Shown one piece after another: positions 36,310 through 46,995 of a DNA stretch of 64,000 bases (the first letter of the stretch is position 1; every line of letters starts with the position of its first letter). Position numbers and translations under genes: made by a program. Origin of the DNA: Candidatus Geohabitans tengchongensis (lineage in GTDB: Bacteria; Sysuimicrobiota; Sysuimicrobiia; Sysuimicrobiales; Humicultoraceae). The stretch covers positions 188,051 through 252,050 of the forward strand of contig JAVKIH010000002.1 of the NCBI GenBank assembly GCA_031459625.1, written 5' to 3'. The notes beneath the pieces are model-generated. The model did not search any database. It was not told where the DNA came from and was given only the letters and a program-made list of their open reading frames with translations.

Positions 36310-36825
36310 TCAGCCGGTCTGCTGCGAGCCGTGGGCCGGCACGGGCGCGACGACTGTCGAGCCCACGACCACCACCAGCGCCAGGGCCAGCCCGGCGACC
36401 AGAATCGGGACGACCGGCAGCGTCCGGCCCAGGACCGAGTCCACCGCGTAGGCGCCGGGACCGGTGAGCGCCACGCCCGTCACCACCGTCAGGTTGGCCA
36501 GGGCGTACTCCCAGCCGCCGTTCGCCACCCACGGCCCGCGGCCCCAGTGCGCCCGGGCGATGGCCATGAGCATGACGGCGCCGATCAGTACCGAGCCCAC
36601 CGGGTTGAGGAGCCCGAGGGCGAAGAGCGCCCCGCCGAGCGTCTCACAGAGCCCGGCCACGAGCGCCCAGAGGCGCCCGGGGCGCAGCCCCAGCGACTCC
36701 ATGTAGCCTGCCGTCCCGGCGAGCCCGTACCCGCCGACCCAGCGGGTGAGCTTTTGCAGCCCGTGTCCCATGAACAGTCCCCCGATCACGACACGGATCA
36801 TGACGAGACCGAGGTCAGCCGGCAT
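36310..36825 (-). CDS. DoxX family membrane protein
   Basis: FMGHGLQKL, E..GG, NGGWEY, GPGAYAVD. Confidence 0.9.
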   Translation of the reverse strand: MPADLGLVMIRVVIGGLFMGHGLQKLTRWVGGYGLAGTAGYMESLGLRPGRLWALVAGLCETLGGALFALGLLNPVGSVLIGAVMLMAIARAHWGRGPWVANGGWEYALANLTVVTGVALTGPGAYAVDSVLGRTLPVVPILVAGLALALVVVVGSTVVAPVPAHGSQQTG

Positions 36826-36989
36826 CGCCTCCCACCTCCTTCGCTGTCCTCAGTTGTCGTCCGGACAACGCCCCCCTGGGGAGGGGCAGCGGCGCGACGG
36901 GGGTAGCGCCCGGGGCGGGTGCACTCCCCGCCGCACCGCTCCACAGACCGGGCGCGCCCTGACGCGCGCCGGCCCACCCGTCGCGTCCG

Positions 36990-37421
36990 TCAGGCGCGCA
37001 CCAGCTCCACCGGGACCTTCTTGGGCAGCGCCGCCTGGACCACCGGGATGGTGATCTCCAGGATGCCGCCCACCCACCGGGCCTTCACCTGCTCGGCGTC
37101 GAGCCCCTCGGGCAGCTCCAGGGTCCGCTCGAAGCGCCCGTAGGCGATCTCCCCGAAGATGCGGTCGTCGGCCGGCACCTCCGGCCCGCGCCGCTCACCG
37201 GCGATGGTGAGCGTCGAGCCGGTCAGCCGGACGTCCACGCTCGTCGGGTCGACGCCCGCCAGCTCCGCCCGGACCACCAGGTGCCCGTCCCTGTAGAAGG
37301 CCTCGCAGTTCGGAGCGAACGCCACCGCCTCCGACCGCTCGCCGAAGACCCGCTGGACCAGGTTCATCAGGTCCCGCTGGAGCCGAAACAGCTCCTCGAA
37401 CGGCGTGCGCCGGACCAGCAT
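36990..37421 (-). CDS. Hsp20/alpha-crystallin small heat shock protein
   Basis: AELAGVDP, LTIAGER, YGRFERTLELP, GILEITIP; RBS AAAGGAGGTGA. Confidence 0.92.
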   Translation of the reverse strand: MLVRRTPFEELFRLQRDLMNLVQRVFGERSEAVAFAPNCEAFYRDGHLVVRAELAGVDPTSVDVRLTGSTLTIAGERRGPEVPADDRIFGEIAYGRFERTLELPEGLDAEQVKARWVGGILEITIPVVQAALPKKVPVELVRA

Positions 37422-37584
37422 CGTCGTTCACCTCCTTTCCTGCGTTGGGTGACCGGCCGGGACGCCCGGGGGCAGGAGCCACCCAGGGCCCCGGAGCCTC
37501 CACCCATTCTTAAAAGGGGAACGGGGTCGATATTGTCAAGGGGATTGGCTTAACAGTGCTCGCGGGCGGGCGCGGGGAAAGGGC

Positions 37585-38907
37585 TCAGGCCAGCCCGAAC
37601 TCCTGGAGGAGGTGGCGCTCCACGTCCGCCGCCGCCTCCAGCATGAAGGCCTCGATCTCCTCCGGGGTGCGCGGGGCCGGCCGGTCAGCTGGCGGCGTCC
37701 ACACCCGCGTGGCGTAGAACTCGAGGAAGGGCGAGATCGTCGGGAAGGGGTAGATGACGTAGACCTTCTTGCCGGTCGTGTGGGCGTGGATGACCTCGGA
37801 GAGGACCCCGAACGACATCTGGCTCGTCGGGTAGAAGACGACGTTCACGTCGCTCTGGTCGATCAGGCGCAGGTCGCGCACCACCGTGGCCCGCCCCAGC
37901 AGCAGCCGGGTGCGCTCGTCCAGCCCCTGCGCCCAGGCCCGCGCCTCCTCCAGCGATCCGGCCCAGGCGCGGATCTCCTCCCGCTGCTCCGGGGAGAACT
38001 GGGCGTCGAACTCCTCCGTGCCGATGCGGGCGAAGGCGGCGGCCTCCTCGTCCTTCACCGAGAGCGGGTCGAAGACCACGAAGTGCTCGCGCAGCCGGCG
38101 GGCAAACGCCCGCGCGGCCTCGATGAGGTGCCACAGCCCCTCGCGTCTCAGGTTGGTGATGGGGTAGCCCAGGTAGATGCGGGGCCTTTTAAAGCAGATG
38201 AGGTCGATGAGGGTGCGGGTGGGCTCGTCGTGGGCGATCAGGTAGTGCGGCACCCGCTCGTAGGCGGCCAGCATGCGGGTGAGGAAGACCTCCTGCTCCT
38301 GCCACATGATCAGCTCGCTGGTGGGGAGCTGGCCGCGCCACTGCGCCGTCTCGTGCAGGCGGCGGTGGATCTGGTAGACGCTGTCCACCACGGTGATGTA
38401 GAAGATGCCCTCCGGGCGCACCGGCGGGGCCAGCCGCAGCTCCGGGAGCATCTCCTGGACGGCGGTGGGGGCGGGCTGGGCCGACCGCCGGCGGGTCTCG
38501 TCGACGATGAGCTTCAGGTAGTGGGTGTCGAGGCCCGGGATGAGGTGCCCCTTCCACCAGAAGCAGGCGTGGGTGACCAGGATAGTGGCCACCTCCGGGG
38601 CCCACAGCTCCGGGTCGTTCACCACCTCGGTGAGGACCACGGCGCGCAGCTGCTGCAGGGCCTCCGGGGCCATGTCCAGGATCGTCTCGGTGCTGATGTC
38701 CAGCCCCATGTCCCGCGCCCGCCGCAGCATCAGGTCGCCCACGTCCACCAATCGCAGCCGCTTGATGGGCGAGGTCCAACGCCCCTCCAGCTGGGCGGAC
38801 GCGATCAGGCGCTCGGCGTCCGCCACCACCCGCACCAGGTAGCCCGGGGCGCCGCCGGACTCGCGCACCTTGCCGCTGCCGCTGATGCCGGTGGCGATGA
38901 CGATCAT
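37585..38907 (-). CDS. fusion: archaeal adenylate-kinase-like P-loop domain + nucleoside 2-deoxyribosyltransferase-like domain
   Basis: N-terminal TGISGSGK, VGDLML, VTHA, IPGL; C-terminal IYLGYP, VFDP, RDLRLIDQSD, SFGVLSE, GKKVYV. Confidence 0.75.
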   Translation of the reverse strand: MIVIATGISGSGKVRESGGAPGYLVRVVADAERLIASAQLEGRWTSPIKRLRLVDVGDLMLRRARDMGLDISTETILDMAPEALQQLRAVVLTEVVNDPELWAPEVATILVTHACFWWKGHLIPGLDTHYLKLIVDETRRRSAQPAPTAVQEMLPELRLAPPVRPEGIFYITVVDSVYQIHRRLHETAQWRGQLPTSELIMWQEQEVFLTRMLAAYERVPHYLIAHDEPTRTLIDLICFKRPRIYLGYPITNLRREGLWHLIEAARAFARRLREHFVVFDPLSVKDEEAAAFARIGTEEFDAQFSPEQREEIRAWAGSLEEARAWAQGLDERTRLLLGRATVVRDLRLIDQSDVNVVFYPTSQMSFGVLSEVIHAHTTGKKVYVIYPFPTISPFLEFYATRVWTPPADRPAPRTPEEIEAFMLEAAADVERHLLQEFGLA

Positions 38908-38932
38908 CAGTCCGCCCCGCCCGGGCCGGGCC

Positions 38933-40063
38933 TCAGCCCCCGGCCACGCGGAAGGCCCGCACCCGCTCCCAGTCCACCTCCAGCCCGAGCCCCGGGCCGG
39001 TGGGGAGCTCCAGCATCCCCTCCCGCGGCTCCGGGAAGGGGGTGGTGAAGATGTCGCGCAGGGGGTTGGGGATGAACATGGCCTCGTAGCTCAGCAGGTT
39101 CGGCACCGCCGCGGCCAGGTGGAGCGAGGCCAGGTGGGCCACGCCGGCGGAGAAGCCAGTGTGCGGGGCGTACGCCAGGTTGTAGGCGTGGACGAGGGCG
39201 CCCAGCCGCAGGGCCGCGGTAAAGCCGCCCACGCGGGCGATGTCGGGCTGGACCACGTCGATGGCCCGCCGCTCGATCAGGTCGCGGAAGCCGAAGAGCC
39301 CGAACTCCGACTCGCCGCCGGCCACCGGGATGGACTGGCGGCGGCGCACCAGCGCGTACCCCGAGACGTCGTCCGGCGGCACCGGCTCCTCGATCCAGGT
39401 GATGTCCAGCGGCTCCACCTCCCGGCACAGGCGGATCGCCGTGGCGGCGTCGTAGGCGCCGTTGGCGTCGAGCATGAGGGCCACCTCCGGGCCCACCGCC
39501 TCGCGGATCGCCCGCACCGTGGCCACGTCCGCGCGCAGGCCGCCCTGCGCCTCGCTGCGTCCCACCTGCACCTTCACCGCCCGGTGCCCCTGCCGCACCA
39601 GTGCCGCCGCCTCGGCCACCATGTGGTCGGTGGCGGCGAAGTAGACCTTGGAGGCGTAGACCGGCACCCGTTCCCGTCCCACCCCCCGCAGGAAGCGGAA
39701 GAGCGGCTCCCCGGCGGCGCGGGCCAGCAGGTTCCACAGGGCGATGTCCACGCCGCTCATGGCCTCGACCACGAAGCCGCGCGAGTGGCCCCACCGGCGC
39801 AGCTGCCCGAACATCGCCTCCCACAGGCCGCCCACGTCGCGCGGGTCCCGGCCCAGCAGCACCGGGGCGAGGAGGTCCTCGACGACGGTGGCGGTGACGC
39901 GCGGGGCGCGGCGGGCGATGCACTCCCCCACCCCGTGCTGCCCGTCGTCAGTCCACACCTCCACCAGGGTGGCCACGAACGTCTGGAACGGGCCCATGGC
40001 GAAGAGGATGGGCCGCTCCAGCCGGCCTGCCAGGGCGTGGGTGACGATGCGCTCGATCTTCAC
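38933..40063 (-). CDS. mandelate racemase/muconate lactonizing enzyme (enolase superfamily) protein
   Basis: SGVDIALW, LDANG, IEEP, GGES, QPD, APH, PTGPGLG; GTG at 40063 overlaps cofE stop. Confidence 0.9.
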   Translation of the reverse strand: MKIERIVTHALAGRLERPILFAMGPFQTFVATLVEVWTDDGQHGVGECIARRAPRVTATVVEDLLAPVLLGRDPRDVGGLWEAMFGQLRRWGHSRGFVVEAMSGVDIALWNLLARAAGEPLFRFLRGVGRERVPVYASKVYFAATDHMVAEAAALVRQGHRAVKVQVGRSEAQGGLRADVATVRAIREAVGPEVALMLDANGAYDAATAIRLCREVEPLDITWIEEPVPPDDVSGYALVRRRQSIPVAGGESEFGLFGFRDLIERRAIDVVQPDIARVGGFTAALRLGALVHAYNLAYAPHTGFSAGVAHLASLHLAAAVPNLLSYEAMFIPNPLRDIFTTPFPEPREGMLELPTGPGLGLEVDWERVRAFRVAGG

Positions 40064-40818
40064 CGGTACAGGTCCTCCTCCACCGGCCGCACCAGCTGGC
40101 GCGCGCGGCCGTCGCCCGGGGGGAGGCGGGCGCCGCGCACCAGGACCACCGGCGTCCCCTCGTCGCTCTGCCCCTGCAGCAGCCCCGCCGCCGCGGCCAG
40201 CTCGTCGGCGACGGCCTCCACGCTGGTGCGCAGGACGTAGCCGTAGCGGTCGCGCCGTCCCACGTAGCTGAGGAGCGGCGCGAATCCGGCCAGGCCGATG
40301 GCCACGCCCACCGCCCCCTCCCGGTGGGGGCGGCCGTGGCTGTCGCTCACCACCACGCCCACGTCCACCCCGAAGCGCGCCCGCATCGCCTCGCGCAGGC
40401 CCGCCGCCGAGCGGTCGGGGTCGAGGGGCAGCAGGCTGACCACGTCCTCGCTGCCGGCCACGTTGGAGTGGTCCACCCCGGCATTGGCGCAGATGAACCC
40501 CAGCCGGTGCTCGGCGATGATCAACCCCGGGCGGCGCCGGTTGATGGCGCGCGACTCCCGCAGGACCACCTCCACCAGGCGCGGGTCCTTGCCGGTCTCC
40601 GCCGCCAGCGCCAGGGCCTCCCGCCCGGGGGTGACCTCGCGTAGGTCGGCGATGCGCCCCTCCGCCTTCGAGACCACCTTCTGGGCCACCACCAGCACGT
40701 CGCCGTCGGCGGGGACGATCCCGCAGGCGGCCAGCGCGTCGGCGATGAGGGCGGCCAGGTCCATCCCCGGCCGCACCTCCGGGAAGGGCTCCAGGGCCCA
40801 CAGCGTCAGGATGCGCAT
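40060..40818 (-). CDS. cofE: coenzyme F420-0:L-glutamate ligase
   Basis: PEVRPG, GDVLVVAQKVVSKAEGR, ANAGVDHSNV, LPLDPDRSA, DSHGRP, ADELAAAA. Confidence 0.92.
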   Translation of the reverse strand: MRILTLWALEPFPEVRPGMDLAALIADALAACGIVPADGDVLVVAQKVVSKAEGRIADLREVTPGREALALAAETGKDPRLVEVVLRESRAINRRRPGLIIAEHRLGFICANAGVDHSNVAGSEDVVSLLPLDPDRSAAGLREAMRARFGVDVGVVVSDSHGRPHREGAVGVAIGLAGFAPLLSYVGRRDRYGYVLRTSVEAVADELAAAAGLLQGQSDEGTPVVLVRGARLPPGDGRARQLVRPVEEDLYR

Positions 40819-40831
40819 CGGCTCGGCGGCC

Positions 40832-41515
40832 TCACGAGGTCGGCGGGGCGGCCGGCGGGGTGGAGCGCGGCGCCAGGTTAGTCAGGCGCACCCCGACGGC
40901 ACGCCGGCGGCGCACGGCCAGGGCCGTCACCAGCGCCCCGAACCCCTCGAGCGCGCGCGCCGCCGCCAGCGGCCCGCAATCCACCGGCCGGCCGCCGAAG
41001 GCCTCGACCAGCCCGGCCACCGCGGCCCGCGCCCCGTCGTCGTCCCCGCACAGGAGGACGTCCTGGTCGAGCGGCCGCTCCGGGCGCCCCAGCGTCGAGG
41101 CGGCCACGGTGTGGAAGCCGGCCACCACGCGGGCGGTGGGCGCGGCCGCCTGCGTCTCCTCGGCGAAGGCGCGCGCCGCGGGCGGCGCGAGGCCCCCCGG
41201 GACTTCCGGCGCAAACGGCACCGTCACGTCCAGCACCAGCCGGCCGTCGAGCAGCGGAGCGACCTCGCGCAGGACGGCGGCGTGGGCCTCCCAGGGGACG
41301 GCTACGACCACCAGGTCGGCCGCACGCACCGCCTCGACGTTGCCCGCCCCGCGCACCGCCGGACGCTCCAGCGCCGCGGCCGCCGCAGCGCCCCGGGCCG
41401 GATCGCGGGAGCCGATCACCACCGACCAGCCGGCTGCGACCGCCCGGAGGGCGAACCCCCGGCCGAATGGTCCGGTGCCTCCGACGAGCCCGACCGTGCG
41501 TCCCGAAAGGGTCAT
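40832..41515 (-). CDS. npdG: NADPH-dependent F420 reductase (Fno)
   Basis: GGTGPFGRG, IGSR, AVP, VVAGFHTVAA, DVLLCGDD, DCGPL...ARALE; directly upstream of cofE. Confidence 0.85.
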   Translation of the reverse strand: MTLSGRTVGLVGGTGPFGRGFALRAVAAGWSVVIGSRDPARGAAAAAALERPAVRGAGNVEAVRAADLVVVAVPWEAHAAVLREVAPLLDGRLVLDVTVPFAPEVPGGLAPPAARAFAEETQAAAPTARVVAGFHTVAASTLGRPERPLDQDVLLCGDDDGARAAVAGLVEAFGGRPVDCGPLAAARALEGFGALVTALAVRRRRAVGVRLTNLAPRSTPPAAPPTS

Positions 41516-42774
41516 CGCTCCGGCCCGGCCACGGCCAGCGCGTAGCGGTCGAGCGGGAACGCCTCCGCTGCGGCGCGGATCTCCTCGGCGGTGAGCCCCC
41601 GGACGATACCGGGGAAGCGCTCCAGGTAGTCGAGCCCCAGCGCGTAGTACTCGATCTCCCCCAGCGCGGCCGCCACCCCGCCGTGGGTCTCCAGCCGCAC
41701 CGCCAGCGACCCGGTCAGGTAGTCGCGCGCGTCGGCCAGCTCGTCGGGCGCCGGTCCCTCCTGTTGGAAGCGCGCCACCTCCTCCAGGATCGCGCCGATG
41801 GCCCGCTCCACATTGGCCGGGTTCACCCCGGCGCGCACCCACCAGGGCCCCGGCAGCCGGCCGGCGCGCAGCTCCATGGAGGCGTGGTAGGCCAGGCCCA
41901 TCCGCTCCCGCACCCGCTCGCCCACCCGTCCCATCATGCCGAGCTGCCCCAGCAGCACGGTGGCCATCATCGCCGGGTAGTAGGCGGGGTCGGTGCGGGC
42001 GGGGCCCACCCCGCCGAGCACGATGTCCGACTGGCTCTTGCCGGGCAGGGGCACCTCGCGGCGCCGCACGCCCTCGGGCACGCTCACCGGTGGGATGACC
42101 GGTTCGACCGCCTCCCCGGCCGCCTGCCACCCCTCGAAGGCACGCGCCGCCTCTTCCTGGGCCCGGGACCAGGGCAGGTCGCCGACCAGCGCCAGGATGG
42201 TGCGGTCGGGGCGGTAGTGGCGCGCGTGGAAGGCGGCCAGGTCGGGGACGCCGAGCGCCTGCAGCACTGCCTCCTCCCCGTCGGGCGGGGCGGCGTGGGG
42301 GTGGTCCGGCGGGAAGGCCAGCTGGCGGAAGGCCCGCTCGGCGGCGTGCCACGTGTCCAGGGCGCGGACGCGCACCTCGGTGAGCAGCTCGCCGCGCACC
42401 TTCTCTACCTCGGCCGCAGGGAAGGCCGGCCGGGTGACGACCTCGGCCAGCAGGCCGAGGAAGGCCGTTGCGTCCTCCGCCAGCGCCCGCCCCACGACGG
42501 CCACCACCTCCAGCGCTGCGGTAACGGTCAGCGTCGCCCCCATGCCGTCGAGCTCTTCGGCCAGCTGCTGCCCGCTGCGCCGCCGCGTCCCCCGCTCCAG
42601 CGTCCGGGCCACGAACCGGGCCGTACCGGCGTGGCGCCCGTCGAACATGGCGCCCGCCTGCACGAGGAGGTGGACGGCCACCATCCCGCTGCCCGGGCGC
42701 TCGACGGCCAGCAGCCGCAGCCCTCCGGGGAGGACCGCGCGGCGGATGCGCTCGGCGGCCAGGACGACGCTCAT
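41512..42774 (-). CDS. M16 peptidase, non-catalytic subunit
   Basis: M16 fold; lacks HxxEH; VRERMGLAY (R/Y pair). Confidence 0.88.
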   Translation of the reverse strand: MSVVLAAERIRRAVLPGGLRLLAVERPGSGMVAVHLLVQAGAMFDGRHAGTARFVARTLERGTRRRSGQQLAEELDGMGATLTVTAALEVVAVVGRALAEDATAFLGLLAEVVTRPAFPAAEVEKVRGELLTEVRVRALDTWHAAERAFRQLAFPPDHPHAAPPDGEEAVLQALGVPDLAAFHARHYRPDRTILALVGDLPWSRAQEEAARAFEGWQAAGEAVEPVIPPVSVPEGVRRREVPLPGKSQSDIVLGGVGPARTDPAYYPAMMATVLLGQLGMMGRVGERVRERMGLAYHASMELRAGRLPGPWWVRAGVNPANVERAIGAILEEVARFQQEGPAPDELADARDYLTGSLAVRLETHGGVAAALGEIEYYALGLDYLERFPGIVRGLTAEEIRAAAEAFPLDRYALAVAGPER

Positions 42775-44099
42775 GCGTCCACCCGTGCGGCCATGCGCCG
42801 CCCGGCCGCCGCGCCCTCCTCCGGGACGTACCACCCCACCGTCCGCCGACGCGGGTCGAAGACCCGCGCGGCCACCCGCTGCACGTCGGCGGGGGTCACC
42901 CGCTCGACCCGGGCCATCACGTCGAAGAGGGCCTCGGGGTAGAGGAGGAGGGCGTAGGCGCCGAGGGCCCCGGCGAAGGCGTGCACGCCGTCGCGCACGT
43001 AGCTGAACTGCGCCCGGGCCTGCCGCCGCACGCGCGCCAGCTCCTCGGGCGGCACCTCCGTCGTCACCAGCCGGTCCAGCTCCTCCAGGATGGCCGCCTC
43101 CACCGCGGCCACCGGGACGCCGGTGTGCACGGTGGCCACGATGCGCAGCAGGCCCGGGTCGAGGGAGGCGGTGACCGAGGAGACCACTTCCGTGGCCAGC
43201 CCGCGGTCGACCAGGGCCCGGTAGAGCCGGGAGGAGCGCGCGGGCGCCACCGCCCCGCGCACGGCGTCGAAGCCGCCGAGTACCCCGTCGAGCACGAGCA
43301 GCGCGGGCAGGTCGGGATCGCGCGCCGCCGGCGCGTGGTAGGCTACCTGGACGTAGCTCGTGGCGCTGCCGGGCCGCTGCACCACCACCCGTCGCTCCCC
43401 CTCCTGGGGCGGTTCCTCCACGGTCACCGGCGGGGGCGGCGGGCCCGGGTCGAGGGGGTCGAAGGCGCGGCGCACCTGCTCGAGCACCGCCTCGGCGTCG
43501 AACGCCCCCACCGCCACGGCCAGGGCGTTCCCGGGGTGGTAGTAGGTGCGGTAGTGCGCGTAGAGGTCGTCGCGGGTGAGCCGGCGCAGGTCGCCCTTCC
43601 AGCCGATGACGGGGAGACGGTAGGGGTGCACCTTGAAGGCCAGCGCGTCCACCTCCTCCTGTAGGTAGAAGAGCGGGAAGTTCTCCGCGCCCTCCCGCTC
43701 CGAGAGGATGACGGTGCGCTCGCGCTCCACCTCCTCCGGGTCGAAGCGGGTGTTCCGCATGCGGTCGGCTTCCATCGCGATGGCCACGGGGAGGTGCTGG
43801 GCGGGAAGGACCTCGTGGTAGGCGGTGTAGTCCTTCCAGGTGAAGGCGTTCCACCGCCCGCCCAGCCGGTCGATCGCCCGCGTGAGGACGGGGTAGGGCC
43901 GCGTGGGCGTGCCCTTGAAGAGCATGTGCTCCACCCAGTGGGAGATGCCGGTGCGCCCGGGCTGCTCGTTGCGGCTCCCCACGGCGTACCAGAGCCAGAA
44001 GGTGGCCACGGGCGCGGCGTGGCTCTCCACCACCAGCACCCGCAGGCCGTTGTCCAGCGTGGTGGTCTGGACCCGTTCCGACACGACGAGCTCCGACAT
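42771..44099 (-). CDS. M16 zinc peptidase, catalytic subunit
   Basis: LDNGL, VGSRNE, SHWVEHMLFKGT (HxxEH), NAFT, YYHPGNA. Confidence 0.93.
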   Translation of the reverse strand: MSELVVSERVQTTTLDNGLRVLVVESHAAPVATFWLWYAVGSRNEQPGRTGISHWVEHMLFKGTPTRPYPVLTRAIDRLGGRWNAFTWKDYTAYHEVLPAQHLPVAIAMEADRMRNTRFDPEEVERERTVILSEREGAENFPLFYLQEEVDALAFKVHPYRLPVIGWKGDLRRLTRDDLYAHYRTYYHPGNALAVAVGAFDAEAVLEQVRRAFDPLDPGPPPPPVTVEEPPQEGERRVVVQRPGSATSYVQVAYHAPAARDPDLPALLVLDGVLGGFDAVRGAVAPARSSRLYRALVDRGLATEVVSSVTASLDPGLLRIVATVHTGVPVAAVEAAILEELDRLVTTEVPPEELARVRRQARAQFSYVRDGVHAFAGALGAYALLLYPEALFDVMARVERVTPADVQRVAARVFDPRRRTVGWYVPEEGAAAGRRMAARVDA

Positions 44100-44171
44100 G
44101 GCGATGGCAGTGATTCGCCCTCGGTGCGCTCCATACCCCCCGGCGTGCGGGGCGACCTCTCGCAGCGTACC

Positions 44172-45011
44172 ATGGAGGCGGCTGTGGTCGAGCCGCGTCT
44201 GCGCCCCGTCCAGGTGGCCCGGTACCGGTCCGCGCTGCGCCGTCGCTTCCGCCTGCGCAGCGCGGCGGCGTGCGCCCGCTTCGTCGACGCGCTGGGGTTC
44301 TGCTACGCCTTCACCGCCGGCCCGGGGGCGGTCCCCGGAGTCTTCGACGTCATCGGCACGCGCAGCGTCGACCGTATGTGGTCGTGGGCGTGGCGGTGGA
44401 AGGACGAGCTGGCCACGCGCCGGCGCGTCTTCTACGGCCGCGTCCTGCGGCGCAAGCCCACCTTCGTCTCCCGCGCGCTGCTGCCGGCCTTCTACGCCCT
44501 CTCCGGGAACGTCGGGGAGGGCGACGACCACTTGGCCGCCTACGAGGCCGGCCGCCTCTCGCGGCTGGCGCGCGACCTCTACGAGGAGATCGCCCGGCAG
44601 GGGCCGCTGACCACGTGGGACCTGCGCCACCGCTTCGTCCCGCGCGGCGACCGCGGGCACTCCTTCCACCGCGCGCTGGCCGACCTGCAGGAGCGCTTCC
44701 TCATCGCCAAGGTGGCGGAGGTGGCGGGGCGCGGGGCCTACGCCTTCATCTGGGACACCTTCACCCGCTGGATGCCCGACGTGGTGGCGGCGGCCGCCCG
44801 CCTCACCGACGCGGAGGCGGCGGCCGCCATCCTGCGCGCCTACCTGCGCCTGGCCGGGGCGGCGCCGCCGGCGGAGGTGGCCGACCTCTTCCGCTGGCCC
44901 CCCTCGCTGCTGCCGGCGGCGGCGGCCGCGGCCGGGACGGTCACGGTACGGCTGGACCGGACCGACGCTTGGTCCCTGCCCGAGCTCATCCCCCGTCTCG
45001 TCCGGGCGTGA
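44172..45011 (+). CDS. AlkZ/YcaQ-like winged-helix DNA glycosylase-related protein
   Basis: FVDALGF, AWRWKDEL, FYGRVLRRKPTFVS, GPLTT...LR, ALADLQ; family assignment from memory. Confidence 0.6.
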   Translation: MEAAVVEPRLRPVQVARYRSALRRRFRLRSAAACARFVDALGFCYAFTAGPGAVPGVFDVIGTRSVDRMWSWAWRWKDELATRRRVFYGRVLRRKPTFVSRALLPAFYALSGNVGEGDDHLAAYEAGRLSRLARDLYEEIARQGPLTTWDLRHRFVPRGDRGHSFHRALADLQERFLIAKVAEVAGRGAYAFIWDTFTRWMPDVVAAAARLTDAEAAAAILRAYLRLAGAAPPAEVADLFRWPPSLLPAAAAAAGTVTVRLDRTDAWSLPELIPRLVRA

Positions 45012-45858: not shown

Positions 45859-46995
45859 GTGGGTCGGCTGATCCTCCACGTCGACATGGACGCGTTCTTT
45901 GCGGCCATCGAGCAGCTGCGCCGCCCGGAGCTCCGCGGCCGGCCGGTGGTCGTCGGCGGGGACGGCGACCCGCGCAAGCGCGGCGTGGTCTCCACCGCCT
46001 CCTACGAGGCGCGCCGGTACGGCATCCGCTCGGCCATGCCCCTGCGCCACGCCCTGCGCGCCTGTCCCCATGCCGTCTTCCTGCCGGTGGACTTCGAGAC
46101 GTACCGCACCTACTCCGCCCGGCTGATGGCCCTCCTGCGCGAGTACACGCCGCTCGTCGAGCCGGTCAGCCTGGACGAGGCCTTCCTGGACTGCTCCCAC
46201 CGGACCGAGGACCCCCTGGCGCTGGCCCGGGAGATCCAGGCGCGGATCCGCGCGGAGCTGGGCCTCACCGCCTCCATCGGGATCGGCCCCAACAAGCTGG
46301 TGGCCAAGATCGCCGCCAACCTGCAAAAACCCGGAGGCCTGACGATGATCTCTGCAGAGGAGGTCGAGGAGCGCCTGCGCCCGCTGCCCGTGCAGGTGCT
46401 CTGGGGGGTGGGGCCCAAGACTGCAGCCTATCTGAAGCAGACCCACAACATCGAGACCGTCGGCGACCTGCGGGCGGTCCCGCTGGCCGTGCTCCAGGAG
46501 ACGCTCGGCCCGCGCCACGGCGAGGACCTCTACCACATCTGCCGGGGGGAGGACGACTCGCCGGTGGTGACGGCGTGGGAGCCCAAGTCGTACAGCCGGG
46601 AGACGACGTTCCAGGTGGACGTCCGGCGGCGGGAGACGCTCGTGCGCACCGTCCAGGCCCTAGGGCGCGAGGTCTGGGCGGAGTGCGTTCGGGAGGACGG
46701 CTACCGCGTCCGCACGGTGACCGTCAAGGTGCGGTACCACACCTTCCGCACCCAGACCCGCGCGCTCACCCTGCCGCAGGCCACGGACGCCCTCGACCTG
46801 CTCCTGCGCACCGCCGTGGACCTGCTGCACCGCCACACCCTGGACCGGCCGGTGCGCCTGGTGGGGGTGCGGTTCTCCGGCCTGGAGCGTCCCCCGACCG
46901 AGGGAGCGGCGGCGTCAAGCCAGACGGACCTCGTCGGCGCTCAGCCTGCCTTCCTGGACACGAGCCGCCGGACCGCCTCGCGCACCTCGTCGTAG
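45859..46995 (+). CDS. dinB: DNA polymerase IV (Y family)
   Basis: HVDMDAFFA, TASYEAR.YGIRSAM, SLDEAFLD, GPNKLVAKIA. Confidence 0.95.
   Translation: MGRLILHVDMDAFFAAIEQLRRPELRGRPVVVGGDGDPRKRGVVSTASYEARRYGIRSAMPLRHALRACPHAVFLPVDFETYRTYSARLMALLREYTPLVEPVSLDEAFLDCSHRTEDPLALAREIQARIRAELGLTASIGIGPNKLVAKIAANLQKPGGLTMISAEEVEERLRPLPVQVLWGVGPKTAAYLKQTHNIETVGDLRAVPLAVLQETLGPRHGEDLYHICRGEDDSPVVTAWEPKSYSRETTFQVDVRRRETLVRTVQALGREVWAECVREDGYRVRTVTVKVRYHTFRTQTRALTLPQATDALDLLLRTAVDLLHRHTLDRPVRLVGVRFSGLERPPTEGAAASSQTDLVGAQPAFLDTSRRTASRTSS

Follow-up and report, generated by a model that had tools for sequence, protein, structure and literature searches.

What does a protein do that joins a kinase fold to a nucleotide-cleaving fold in one chain? 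The question is raised by a gene on the minus strand of contig JAVKIH010000002.1 (assembly GCA_031459625.1) of Candidatus Geohabitans tengchongensis, within the stretch of 64,000 nucleotides, positions 188,051 to 252,050, that we analysed whole and call the window. A sequence-only reading had described the product as an archaeal-type adenylate kinase (AK) domain fused to a domain of the nucleoside deoxyribosyltransferase (NDT) and Rcl (DNPH1) type, and had placed it in modified-nucleotide salvage, cofactor maturation or nucleotide signalling, with the kinase domain as a possible sensor. That overall reading is partly supported: the two domains, the catalytic set and the sensor idea stand, whereas F420 maturation and a signalling or defence role are without support. 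The gene is a conserved member of a widespread, unstudied bacterial and archaeal family and not a one-off, and the explanation we favour, with roughly even confidence, is a self-contained, allosterically gated 2'-deoxynucleoside-5'-monophosphate (dNMP) N-glycosidase.

Two folds in one conserved protein

All the motifs named earlier are found in the 440-residue protein in the order stated: TGISGSGK (6-13), VGDLML (56-61), VTHA (111-114) and IPGL (123-126) in the N half, then IYLGYP (244-249), VFDP (278-281), RDLRLIDQSD (344-353), SFGVLSE (365-371) and GKKVYV (379-384) in the C half. Searches with the protein alone gave Pfam AAA_17 at E 0.046, under the cut-off, with no NCBIfam family and no meaningful PDB sequence match. 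The lone sequence is nearly silent, and the domain assignment rests on relatives and on fold. Among 13 distant relatives AAA_17 was matched in 11, PF05014 (Nuc_deoxyrib_tr) in 11 and both in nine at E<=0.05, with the curated cut-offs passed by only four (AAA_17) and two (PF05014) of the 13. A 128-row family profile compared with known structures matched six archaeal AKs at E 9e-20 to 1e-14, and over its C-terminal domain the CMP N-glycosidase 4JEN at E 0.003, with Rcl/DNPH1 weak at E 0.15-0.3.

The AlphaFold2 model (mean pLDDT 93.5, pTM 0.92) bears out the proposed two-domain architecture, with an archaeal AK over residues 1-240 and an NDT/MilB/Rcl fold over 239-440. Residues 1-240 superpose on the Aeropyrum AK 6LN3 with a VIA Z score of 20.8 (root-mean-square deviation (rmsd) 2.2 Å, 188 residues aligned) and on OdinAK (7OWE) with a Z of 17.6, and both the beta-hairpin of archaeal AKs (E115-124) and a trimerisation-type helix (H196-216) are present in the model. 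For residues 239-440 the VIA matches were 7O62 (Z 15.0), 7M5H (14.1), 6EVS (13.3), MilB 4OHR (13.2) and Rcl 2KHZ (11.4); the comparison with 7O62 (rmsd 2.4, 129 aligned, residues 239-438) shows the five-stranded Rossmann-like NDT fold, and Foldseek returned human DNPH1 8RPT at E 3.5e-4. The NDT/Rcl assignment of this domain is confirmed by two structural comparisons of the model.

The fusion of AK-like and NDT domains is obligate in the family: both domains lie in one open reading frame (ORF) in 205 of 208 partly redundant loci, and the remaining three stop at a contig edge. Both halves of the protein are under purifying selection, with a median ratio of nonsynonymous to synonymous substitution rates (dN/dS) of 0.195 (residues 1-240) and 0.225 (residues 241-440) across 23 sequences of the window's taxonomic family. 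In the open-licence PMC and bioRxiv literature no characterised protein with this architecture was found and the full-length protein matches no characterised enzyme there, in keeping with what had been said of it; each of the folds is familiar, as is the probable chemistry, and what that literature does not describe is the fusion. Other NDT fusions are treated in PMC3710099.

The family is large. A word search gave 74 proteins among 8000 scored candidates, and a full HMMER scan 458 clusters (50% identity) at E<=0.001, of which 203 reach 1e-10; confirmation succeeded for at least 586 of 599 pattern matches from GTDB genomes and for 583 of 598 from metagenomes. Among the loci viewed, the best 80 each from the GTDB and metagenome matches, bacterial hosts were Anaerolineae, Dehalococcoidia, Bacillota, Caldiserica, Phycisphaerae, Bacteroidota and Armatimonadota/Ca. 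Sysuimicrobiota, and archaeal hosts Thermoproteota, Nitrososphaerota, Bathyarchaeia, Micrarchaeota and Thermoplasmatales. A quick-method tree of 62 rows puts the gene in a seven-row Armatimonadota/Sysuimicrobiota clade (SH-aLRT 100) and leaves the donor unresolved. Members usually have 320-380 residues, and the window's clade is longer by virtue of three inserts.

Distribution is patchy but stable. In the window's taxonomic family a strong match was seen in 31 of 33 genomes, 29 of them near full length, one split across two contigs and one a contig-end fragment, and the two genomes without a match are 59% and 85% complete; the gene is single-copy, clade-fixed and about 75% identical there. Two unpublished genomes (G008, G018) are included in this tally and in the locus surveys, and lie outside the dN/dS and cofE-distance counts; none of the conclusions depends solely on them. 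None of 27 genomes from six sister families gave a strong match, and five gave a weak match to the C-domain alone. Elsewhere the gene was found in 7 of 29 genomes sampled from one archaeal phylum and in 16 of 251 from Planctomycetota. Variants exist: five proteins of 566-614 residues (P0107, P0110, P0126, P0130, P0133) carry two AK-like domains ahead of the NDT domain, P0186 has a C-terminal NUDIX fusion, and P0181 a helix-hairpin-helix insert inside the NDT domain. The ESM Atlas labels the family's clusters hypothetical proteins and offers, at scores under 0.9, dNK+NDT pairs in Actinomycetota and Pseudomonadota and TMK+NDT and KTI12/AAA_33+NDT pairs in viruses; pairs of kinase-like and NDT domains may have arisen several times. 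As a separate observation, in two loci (L161:5046-7595 and L162:330-2924) two divergent paralogues flank a Cys-rich gene of 156 residues and of no known family.

Table 1. Features of the fusion gene and its upstream neighbours (window coordinates; residue counts refer to the 128-row family alignment).
Feature	Position	Strand	Evidence and remarks
Gene for the AK-like/NDT-like fusion (P0001)	37585..38907	-	440-aa ORF, ATG start; dN/dS about 0.2 in both halves
N-domain, aa 1-240: archaeal trimeric AK fold, degenerate active site, predicted nucleotide sensor	38188..38907	-	structure match and profile, E 9e-20
P-loop TGISGSGK-VR, aa 6-15	38863..38892	-	TGxSG kept; Lys/Arg at position 13; Ser/Thr lost at K+1/K+2
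VTHA, including the active-site His of archaeal AKs (His113)	38566..38577	-	112/128 rows; aligned to DTHA of 1NKS
Remodelled LID: Arg183 kept, Trp190 at an AK Arg site, Arg191 variable	38335..38361	-	family alignment
C-domain, aa 241-440: NDT/DNPH1/MilB fold, predicted dNMP N-glycosidase	37588..38187	-	structure matches
Tyr245, triad Tyr on beta1	38173..38175	-	128/128 rows
Asp345 (DNPH1 D80)	37873..37875	-	127/128 rows; aligned to DNPH1
SFGVLSE: Ser365 (DNPH1 S98, phosphate) and predicted nucleophile Glu371 (DNPH1 E104)	37795..37815	-	117/128 and 126/128 rows
ISPF with Ser392, probable DNPH1 S128' counterpart	37726..37737	-	105/128 rows; SPF motif after beta4; equivalence by topology
Mandelate racemase/MLE enolase-superfamily gene	38933..40063	-	not in all family members; dispensable as a partner
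cofE (F420-0:glutamate ligase)	40060..40818	-	TIGR01916 279.8 bits, cut-off 180.65
npdG-like gene (F420-dependent NADP reductase)	40832..41509	-	TIGR01915 142 bits, just below the cut-off of 149.8; PF03807

A glycosidase-type active site beside a degenerate kinase cleft

NDT chemistry is a double displacement via a glutamate, in which a tyrosine selects 2'-deoxyribose and serine in place of aspartate or asparagine selects a 5'-phosphate. The Tyr/Phe-Asp/Asn-Glu triad is kept in the family as Tyr245, Asp345 and Glu371 (counts in Table 1), leaving intact the catalytic glutamate and the NDT/Rcl set around it that had been recognised from the motifs. A phosphate-type serine, Ser365, stands six residues ahead of the glutamate, and the NDT-type prolines P249 (122/128) and P281 (127/128) match P11 and P42 of AvNRT by spacing. 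The core profile RD..LIDQSD..S.GV.SE aligned to QDLEWLQQAD..SLGVGYE of human DNPH1 at E about 0.9, a value credible only in combination with the fold match, and Tyr245 corresponds to DNPH1 Y24 by its position on beta1. As described in PMC10603095, the Y24 type selects 2'-deoxyribose, phenylalanine at this site (MilB F17) admits ribose, and S98 and the partner-subunit S128' bind the phosphate; in nucleoside transferases the two serine sites are occupied by Asp and Asn (D79 and N113 of AvNRT, PMC7308715). The family lacks the MilB-type Phe, and the transferase Asp (O5') and NLM-motif Asn are absent, with Ser365 and Ser392 instead. Given the invariant tyrosine and the serines at the Asp/Asn sites, the family reads as a 2'-deoxy, 5'-phosphate enzyme; the triad and phosphate-type serines point to dNMPs as substrate.

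With DNPH1/Rcl (8RPT, 2KHZ, 4P5E) the C-domain shares the fold, the triad, the S98 counterpart and probably that of S128', at 16-19% identity; DNPH1 is stand-alone, whereas the family has the fused AK-like domain and a helical insert of ~50 residues (about 287-335) that probably occupies the place of the DNPH1 shielding loop. The base-recognition residues R30, E55 and H56 of DNPH1 are apparently not kept, T/S251 and D280-P281 standing there by inferred register, and we do not class the family as a DNPH1 orthologue. The MilB/4JEN CMP N-glycosidases share the fold and the S-x-G-x-x-x-E motif, and 4JEN is the best sequence-profile match of the C-domain (E 0.003-0.04), but MilB has the ribose-type Phe where the family has its invariant Tyr, and acts in antibiotic biosynthesis. 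Nucleoside 2'-deoxyribosyltransferases (7O62, 7M5H, 6EVS, 1F8X; PF05014) are alike in fold (Z 12-15), triad and prolines, and differ in binding a free 5'-OH through Asp and Asn (NLM), both Ser in the family. The phage enzyme DmtZ, which acts on dNMPs, has in common with the family the triad Tyr, the lack of Asp/Asn at the 5' site and an NDT-type proline, and it can be fused to a Dut-like enzyme much as the family is fused to a nucleotide-enzyme domain. Its published description, which sets it apart by its Z-genome pathway, an Asn in the triad and no kinase-like domain, reports dAMP hydrolysis together with transfer of deoxyribose-5-phosphate to another base (PMC12884076).

The N-terminal domain gives a different picture. 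As had been proposed, fold and profile both match archaeal AKs, and archaeal AdkA (6LN3, 1NKS, 1KI9, 7OWE) shares with it the fold over 240 residues, the active-site His, the beta-hairpin and the trimerisation-type helix. Unlike AdkA, the family has neither GK[ST] nor GG[ST]T, shows Leu for the nucleoside-monophosphate (NMP)-site Arg and Trp for a LID Arg, and carries the fused NDT domain. The active site of OdinAK comprises K13, R51, H85, R124, R134 and R137 (PMC9635829), and we placed these sites on 1NKS by motif and spacing, then on the family through a 1NKS-profile alignment. In the P-loop, GK[ST] occurs in 0/127 rows; position 13 is Lys or Arg in 101/128, K+1 is Ser/Thr in 15/128, and K+2 is Glu/Asp in 61/128 and Thr in 3/128, whereas all five archaeal AKs aligned have Ser/Thr-Thr at K+1/K+2. 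The family accordingly departs from the archaeal AK signature G-x-P-G-x-G-[KG]-[ST]-T, and the missing Ser/Thr after the Lys, first remarked in this one protein, is a family-wide loss. The insert after the P-loop that was remarked with it is present here, with seven residues, but occurs in only 6/128 rows, all of this clade.

Of the remaining sites the His (OdinAK H85) is kept as H113, and the NMP-site Arg (OdinAK R51, mapped to 1NKS R58) has become Leu77 in 116/128 rows, Arg not being among the commonest residues. Among the LID arginines (OdinAK R124, R134, R137), R183 is found in 74/128 rows, the second, 1NKS R139, is aligned to Trp190 (103/128), and R/K191 occurs in 64/128; in the less diverse locus set of 192 rows the figures are 173 for R183 and 139 for R/K191. 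Conservation of TGxSG, R88 (107/128), F116, W118, W202 (125/128) and E206 (122/128) argues that a pocket or interface in the domain is under selection. On these residues the domain is probably non-catalytic, and likely a sensor rather than a kinase; the earlier suggestion of a sensor gains support chiefly because arginines of the NMP site and the LID have been lost. The fusion protein is not needed as the host's AK, since the window's genome carries a separate ordinary Adk and two archaeal carriers have an additional AK-like gene.

A proposed gated glycosidase and its rivals

In the explanation we favour, a dNMP would bind at the interface of two C-domains, where Glu371 would displace the base with Asp345 acting as acid/base and Tyr245 excluding the 2'-OH. 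The covalent Glu371-deoxyribose-5-phosphate intermediate would then be released by water or by transfer to a second base. The N-domain would bind a nucleotide in its remodelled cleft without phosphate transfer and switch the C-domain on or off, and the likely job would be to trim or clean the dNMP pool on a nucleotide signal, that is, housekeeping pool control. The chemistry is argued from analogy with characterised NDT-fold enzymes. The gating is an inference for which DcdV/AvcD offers a precedent: there a domain resembling P-loop kinases, whose Walker A motif carries Ser52, is described as required for its dNMP-modifying partner domain (bioRxiv 2021.03.31.437871). The two systems share this logic, in which a kinase-like domain is required by a partner that modifies dNMPs or dNTPs, and some members of each have duplicated kinase domains; they differ in effector fold (a deoxycytidylate deaminase in DcdV/AvcD), and DcdV/AvcD is an anti-phage toxin with an RNA antitoxin, whereas the family looks chromosomal and housekeeping. 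A related and unlikely reading is cellular gated base exchange, in which the C-domain would move deoxyribose-5-phosphate between bases and the AK-like domain would sense the nucleotide pool and set direction or rate. According to PMC12884076, phage DmtZ is to date the only natural enzyme for which one-step dNMP base exchange has been demonstrated; if base exchange were true here, it would amount to dNTP-precursor balancing that bypasses ribonucleotide reductase and classical salvage and has spread by transfer across phyla.

If the gated glycosidase is correct, a metabolic kinase fold has been reused for ligand sensing by a nucleotide glycosidase, and the family is a prokaryotic counterpart to DNPH1-type pool control. 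Family members are often auto-labelled 'adenylate kinase', and in uncultured bacteria and archaea the probably mis-annotated genes number in the hundreds. The finding alone settles no long-standing open question; the family is a ready target for assay, and thermophile-derived versions could serve one-step dNMP synthesis if transfer is found.

Some neighbours belong to deoxynucleotide metabolism. The gene start is overlapped or abutted by tmk in 11 Anaerolineae-type loci, and in one Thermoplasmatales locus tmk stands upstream at a distance of three genes; dcd/dut is directly downstream in two near-identical loci and deoC in one; a NUDIX gene adjoins the fusion gene in two loci and is fused in one protein; and 10 of 22 family genomes have a tandem thyX at a distance of 4-27 kb. 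The idea that thymine salvage stands in for thymidylate synthase was rejected, as the window's family has thyA (5 of 33 genomes plus the window's genome) or thyX (25 of 33). Supply of deoxyribose-5-phosphate to DeoC was not supported: deoC was not found in the window's genome and is absent from five other carriers, while 18 of 27 non-carriers have it, and deoB occurs in 56 of 61 genomes. Trimeric dUTPase (PF00692) was found in one of 61 genomes of the order, whether or not the gene is carried, and is uninformative on dUTPase complementation. We also observed that in the window's family thyA and the tandem-duplicated thyX exclude each other, and that the window's 2.8-Mb genome has three separate matches to the ribonucleotide-reductase large subunit (C23, C4, C9).

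Several points weigh against a gated, non-kinase enzyme. A kinase need not be dead for having lost the K+1 Ser/Thr, a residue that is missing from several NMP kinases (as reported in bioRxiv 2022.06.23.497301), and Methanococcus AKs have no P-loop Lys (GVGGTT); given such atypical P-loops, kinase activity may persist. Basic residues remain at position 13, R183 and R/K191 at the frequencies given above, R88 could stand in for the lost NMP-site Arg, and a one-residue shift in the alignment would set R191 on an AK LID arginine. It also should be considered that the best structure matches of the C-domain are nucleoside transferases and not DNPH1, by a margin of about 2-4 Z units, and that Ser392 is the probable counterpart of S128' by topology. 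As to context, the nucleotide neighbours come from about five lineages and were noticed post hoc, such that chance may explain them; most loci have no deoxynucleotide neighbours, and genomes with and without the gene cannot be told apart by their profiles of thyA, thyX, dut, deoB and deoC. Since the window's genome has no deoC, the protein is unlikely to serve high-flux catabolism there.

Two rivals keep the C-domain on dNMPs and differ over its partner. In bifunctional salvage, an unlikely reading, the C-domain would transfer deoxyribose-5-phosphate to a free base in the manner of DmtZ and the N-domain would be an active, remodelled dNMP kinase yielding the dNDP. The partly kept basic residues at 13, 88, 113, 183 and 191, the tolerance of NMP kinases for atypical P-loops, the NDT-type prolines and the other kinase+NDT fusions, these last being leads only, would all fit; the absence of any GK[ST] row, the acidic K+2, and Leu and Trp at two catalytic Arg sites do not, and in Anaerolineae the adjoining tmk already supplies a dTMP kinase. 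The prolines are a poor predictor, and P281 was down-weighted as a marker of transfer, since P57A in DmtZ did not shift the balance between transfer and hydrolysis (PMC12884076). Rather improbable is a constitutive sanitiser of damaged dNMPs (dUMP, hmdUMP, dIMP, oxidised purines) that would work like DNPH1, with the AK-like domain only as a scaffold for oligomerisation and stability. Many hosts are labelled as lineages known from hot or anoxic habitats, and the beta-hairpin and trimerisation helix of the model carry the conserved W118, W202 and E206, but scaffolding hardly explains the conserved TGxSG, H113 and R88, and DNPH1 R30 and H56 seem replaced (T251, D280-P281) in the register used above.

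The other two take the protein away from pool control. A signalling or anti-phage effector, in which the N-domain would sense a second messenger and the C-domain would deplete the nucleotide pool or cleave a ribonucleotide or NAD-type substrate, would parallel DcdV/AvcD in architecture, including the doubled kinase-like domains of some members, and darA follows the fusion gene in Anaerolineae; the pair tmk-darA is common by itself. NDT domains are known in predicted conflict systems, as treated in PMC3710099. Against this, PADLOC 2.0 matched none of 22 family members, viral-contig scans with narrow motifs confirmed 0/49 and 0/46 candidates, tblastn against phages and plasmids gave no match, and PHROGs matches were to NDT families only. 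The gene is also clade-fixed and single-copy among housekeeping neighbours, and the invariant Tyr speaks against ribose. We consider an effector very unlikely, and on these searches defence or mobile-element status was rejected. Least credible, and hardly to be expected at all, is an enzyme that matures or salvages F420 or another cofactor together with CofE and NpdG, as the earlier cofactor suggestion would imply. The fusion gene does lie downstream of cofE, no more than 2 kb away in 28 of 29 family genomes, and the window's genome (94% complete) uses CofE with no cofC, cofD or cofH found. However, 58 of the order's 61 genomes have cofE, including 27/27 sister-family genomes without the fusion gene, some of them without cofD (true cofD is in 16 of 61), and no F420 or cofE neighbours were seen outside the window's lineage in the loci examined; F420, moreover, has a ribityl chain and not an N-glycoside. 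Since cofE is present in genomes without the fusion gene, the adjacency to npdG-cofE reflects the inheritance of gene order and does not demonstrate that the genes work together, and the F420 link was rejected.

Neighbourhood and other features of the locus

The survey of homologues' neighbourhoods that had been recommended, with genes called by an ORF heuristic, showed neighbours that vary by lineage, most of them unrelated housekeeping genes outside the window's family. Within that family the fusion gene follows npdG-cofE, in some genomes with the enolase-superfamily gene between them. The window's genome combines cofE and npdG with 12 luciferase-like (PF00296) matches and no cofC, cofD or cofH, and the occurrence of cofE without cofD across the order suggests either that F420 is taken up and then glutamylated by the cell itself or that this CofE acts on a different substrate.

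In 24 archaeal loci a glutaredoxin-like gene of ~85 residues (weak PF00462, no CxxC) lies just upstream of the fusion gene, mostly divergent (for example L044:6616-6900, L145:4604-4864 and L094:6506-6781); the arrangement recurs in L192, L194 and L195. Near the fusion gene in the window, at a distance of 5-8 kb, are an AlkZ-like glycosylase gene (44172-45011, PF24741/PF06224), shared by several relatives' loci, and a DinB-like polymerase gene (45859-46995) recognised by eye.

One public contig carries an identical gene, with zero base differences, and may be the source sample; the one run labelled as RNA yielded a 14-kb contig whose depth is flat, which probably reflects DNA. A scan of 36800-44400 for sigma-70 promoters and terminators found nothing. 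Upstream of the Hsp20 gene (36990-37421), at 37540-37511 on the minus strand, stands CCCTTGAC-N15-CCCCTTTTA, which resembles a heat-shock sigma-32 promoter.

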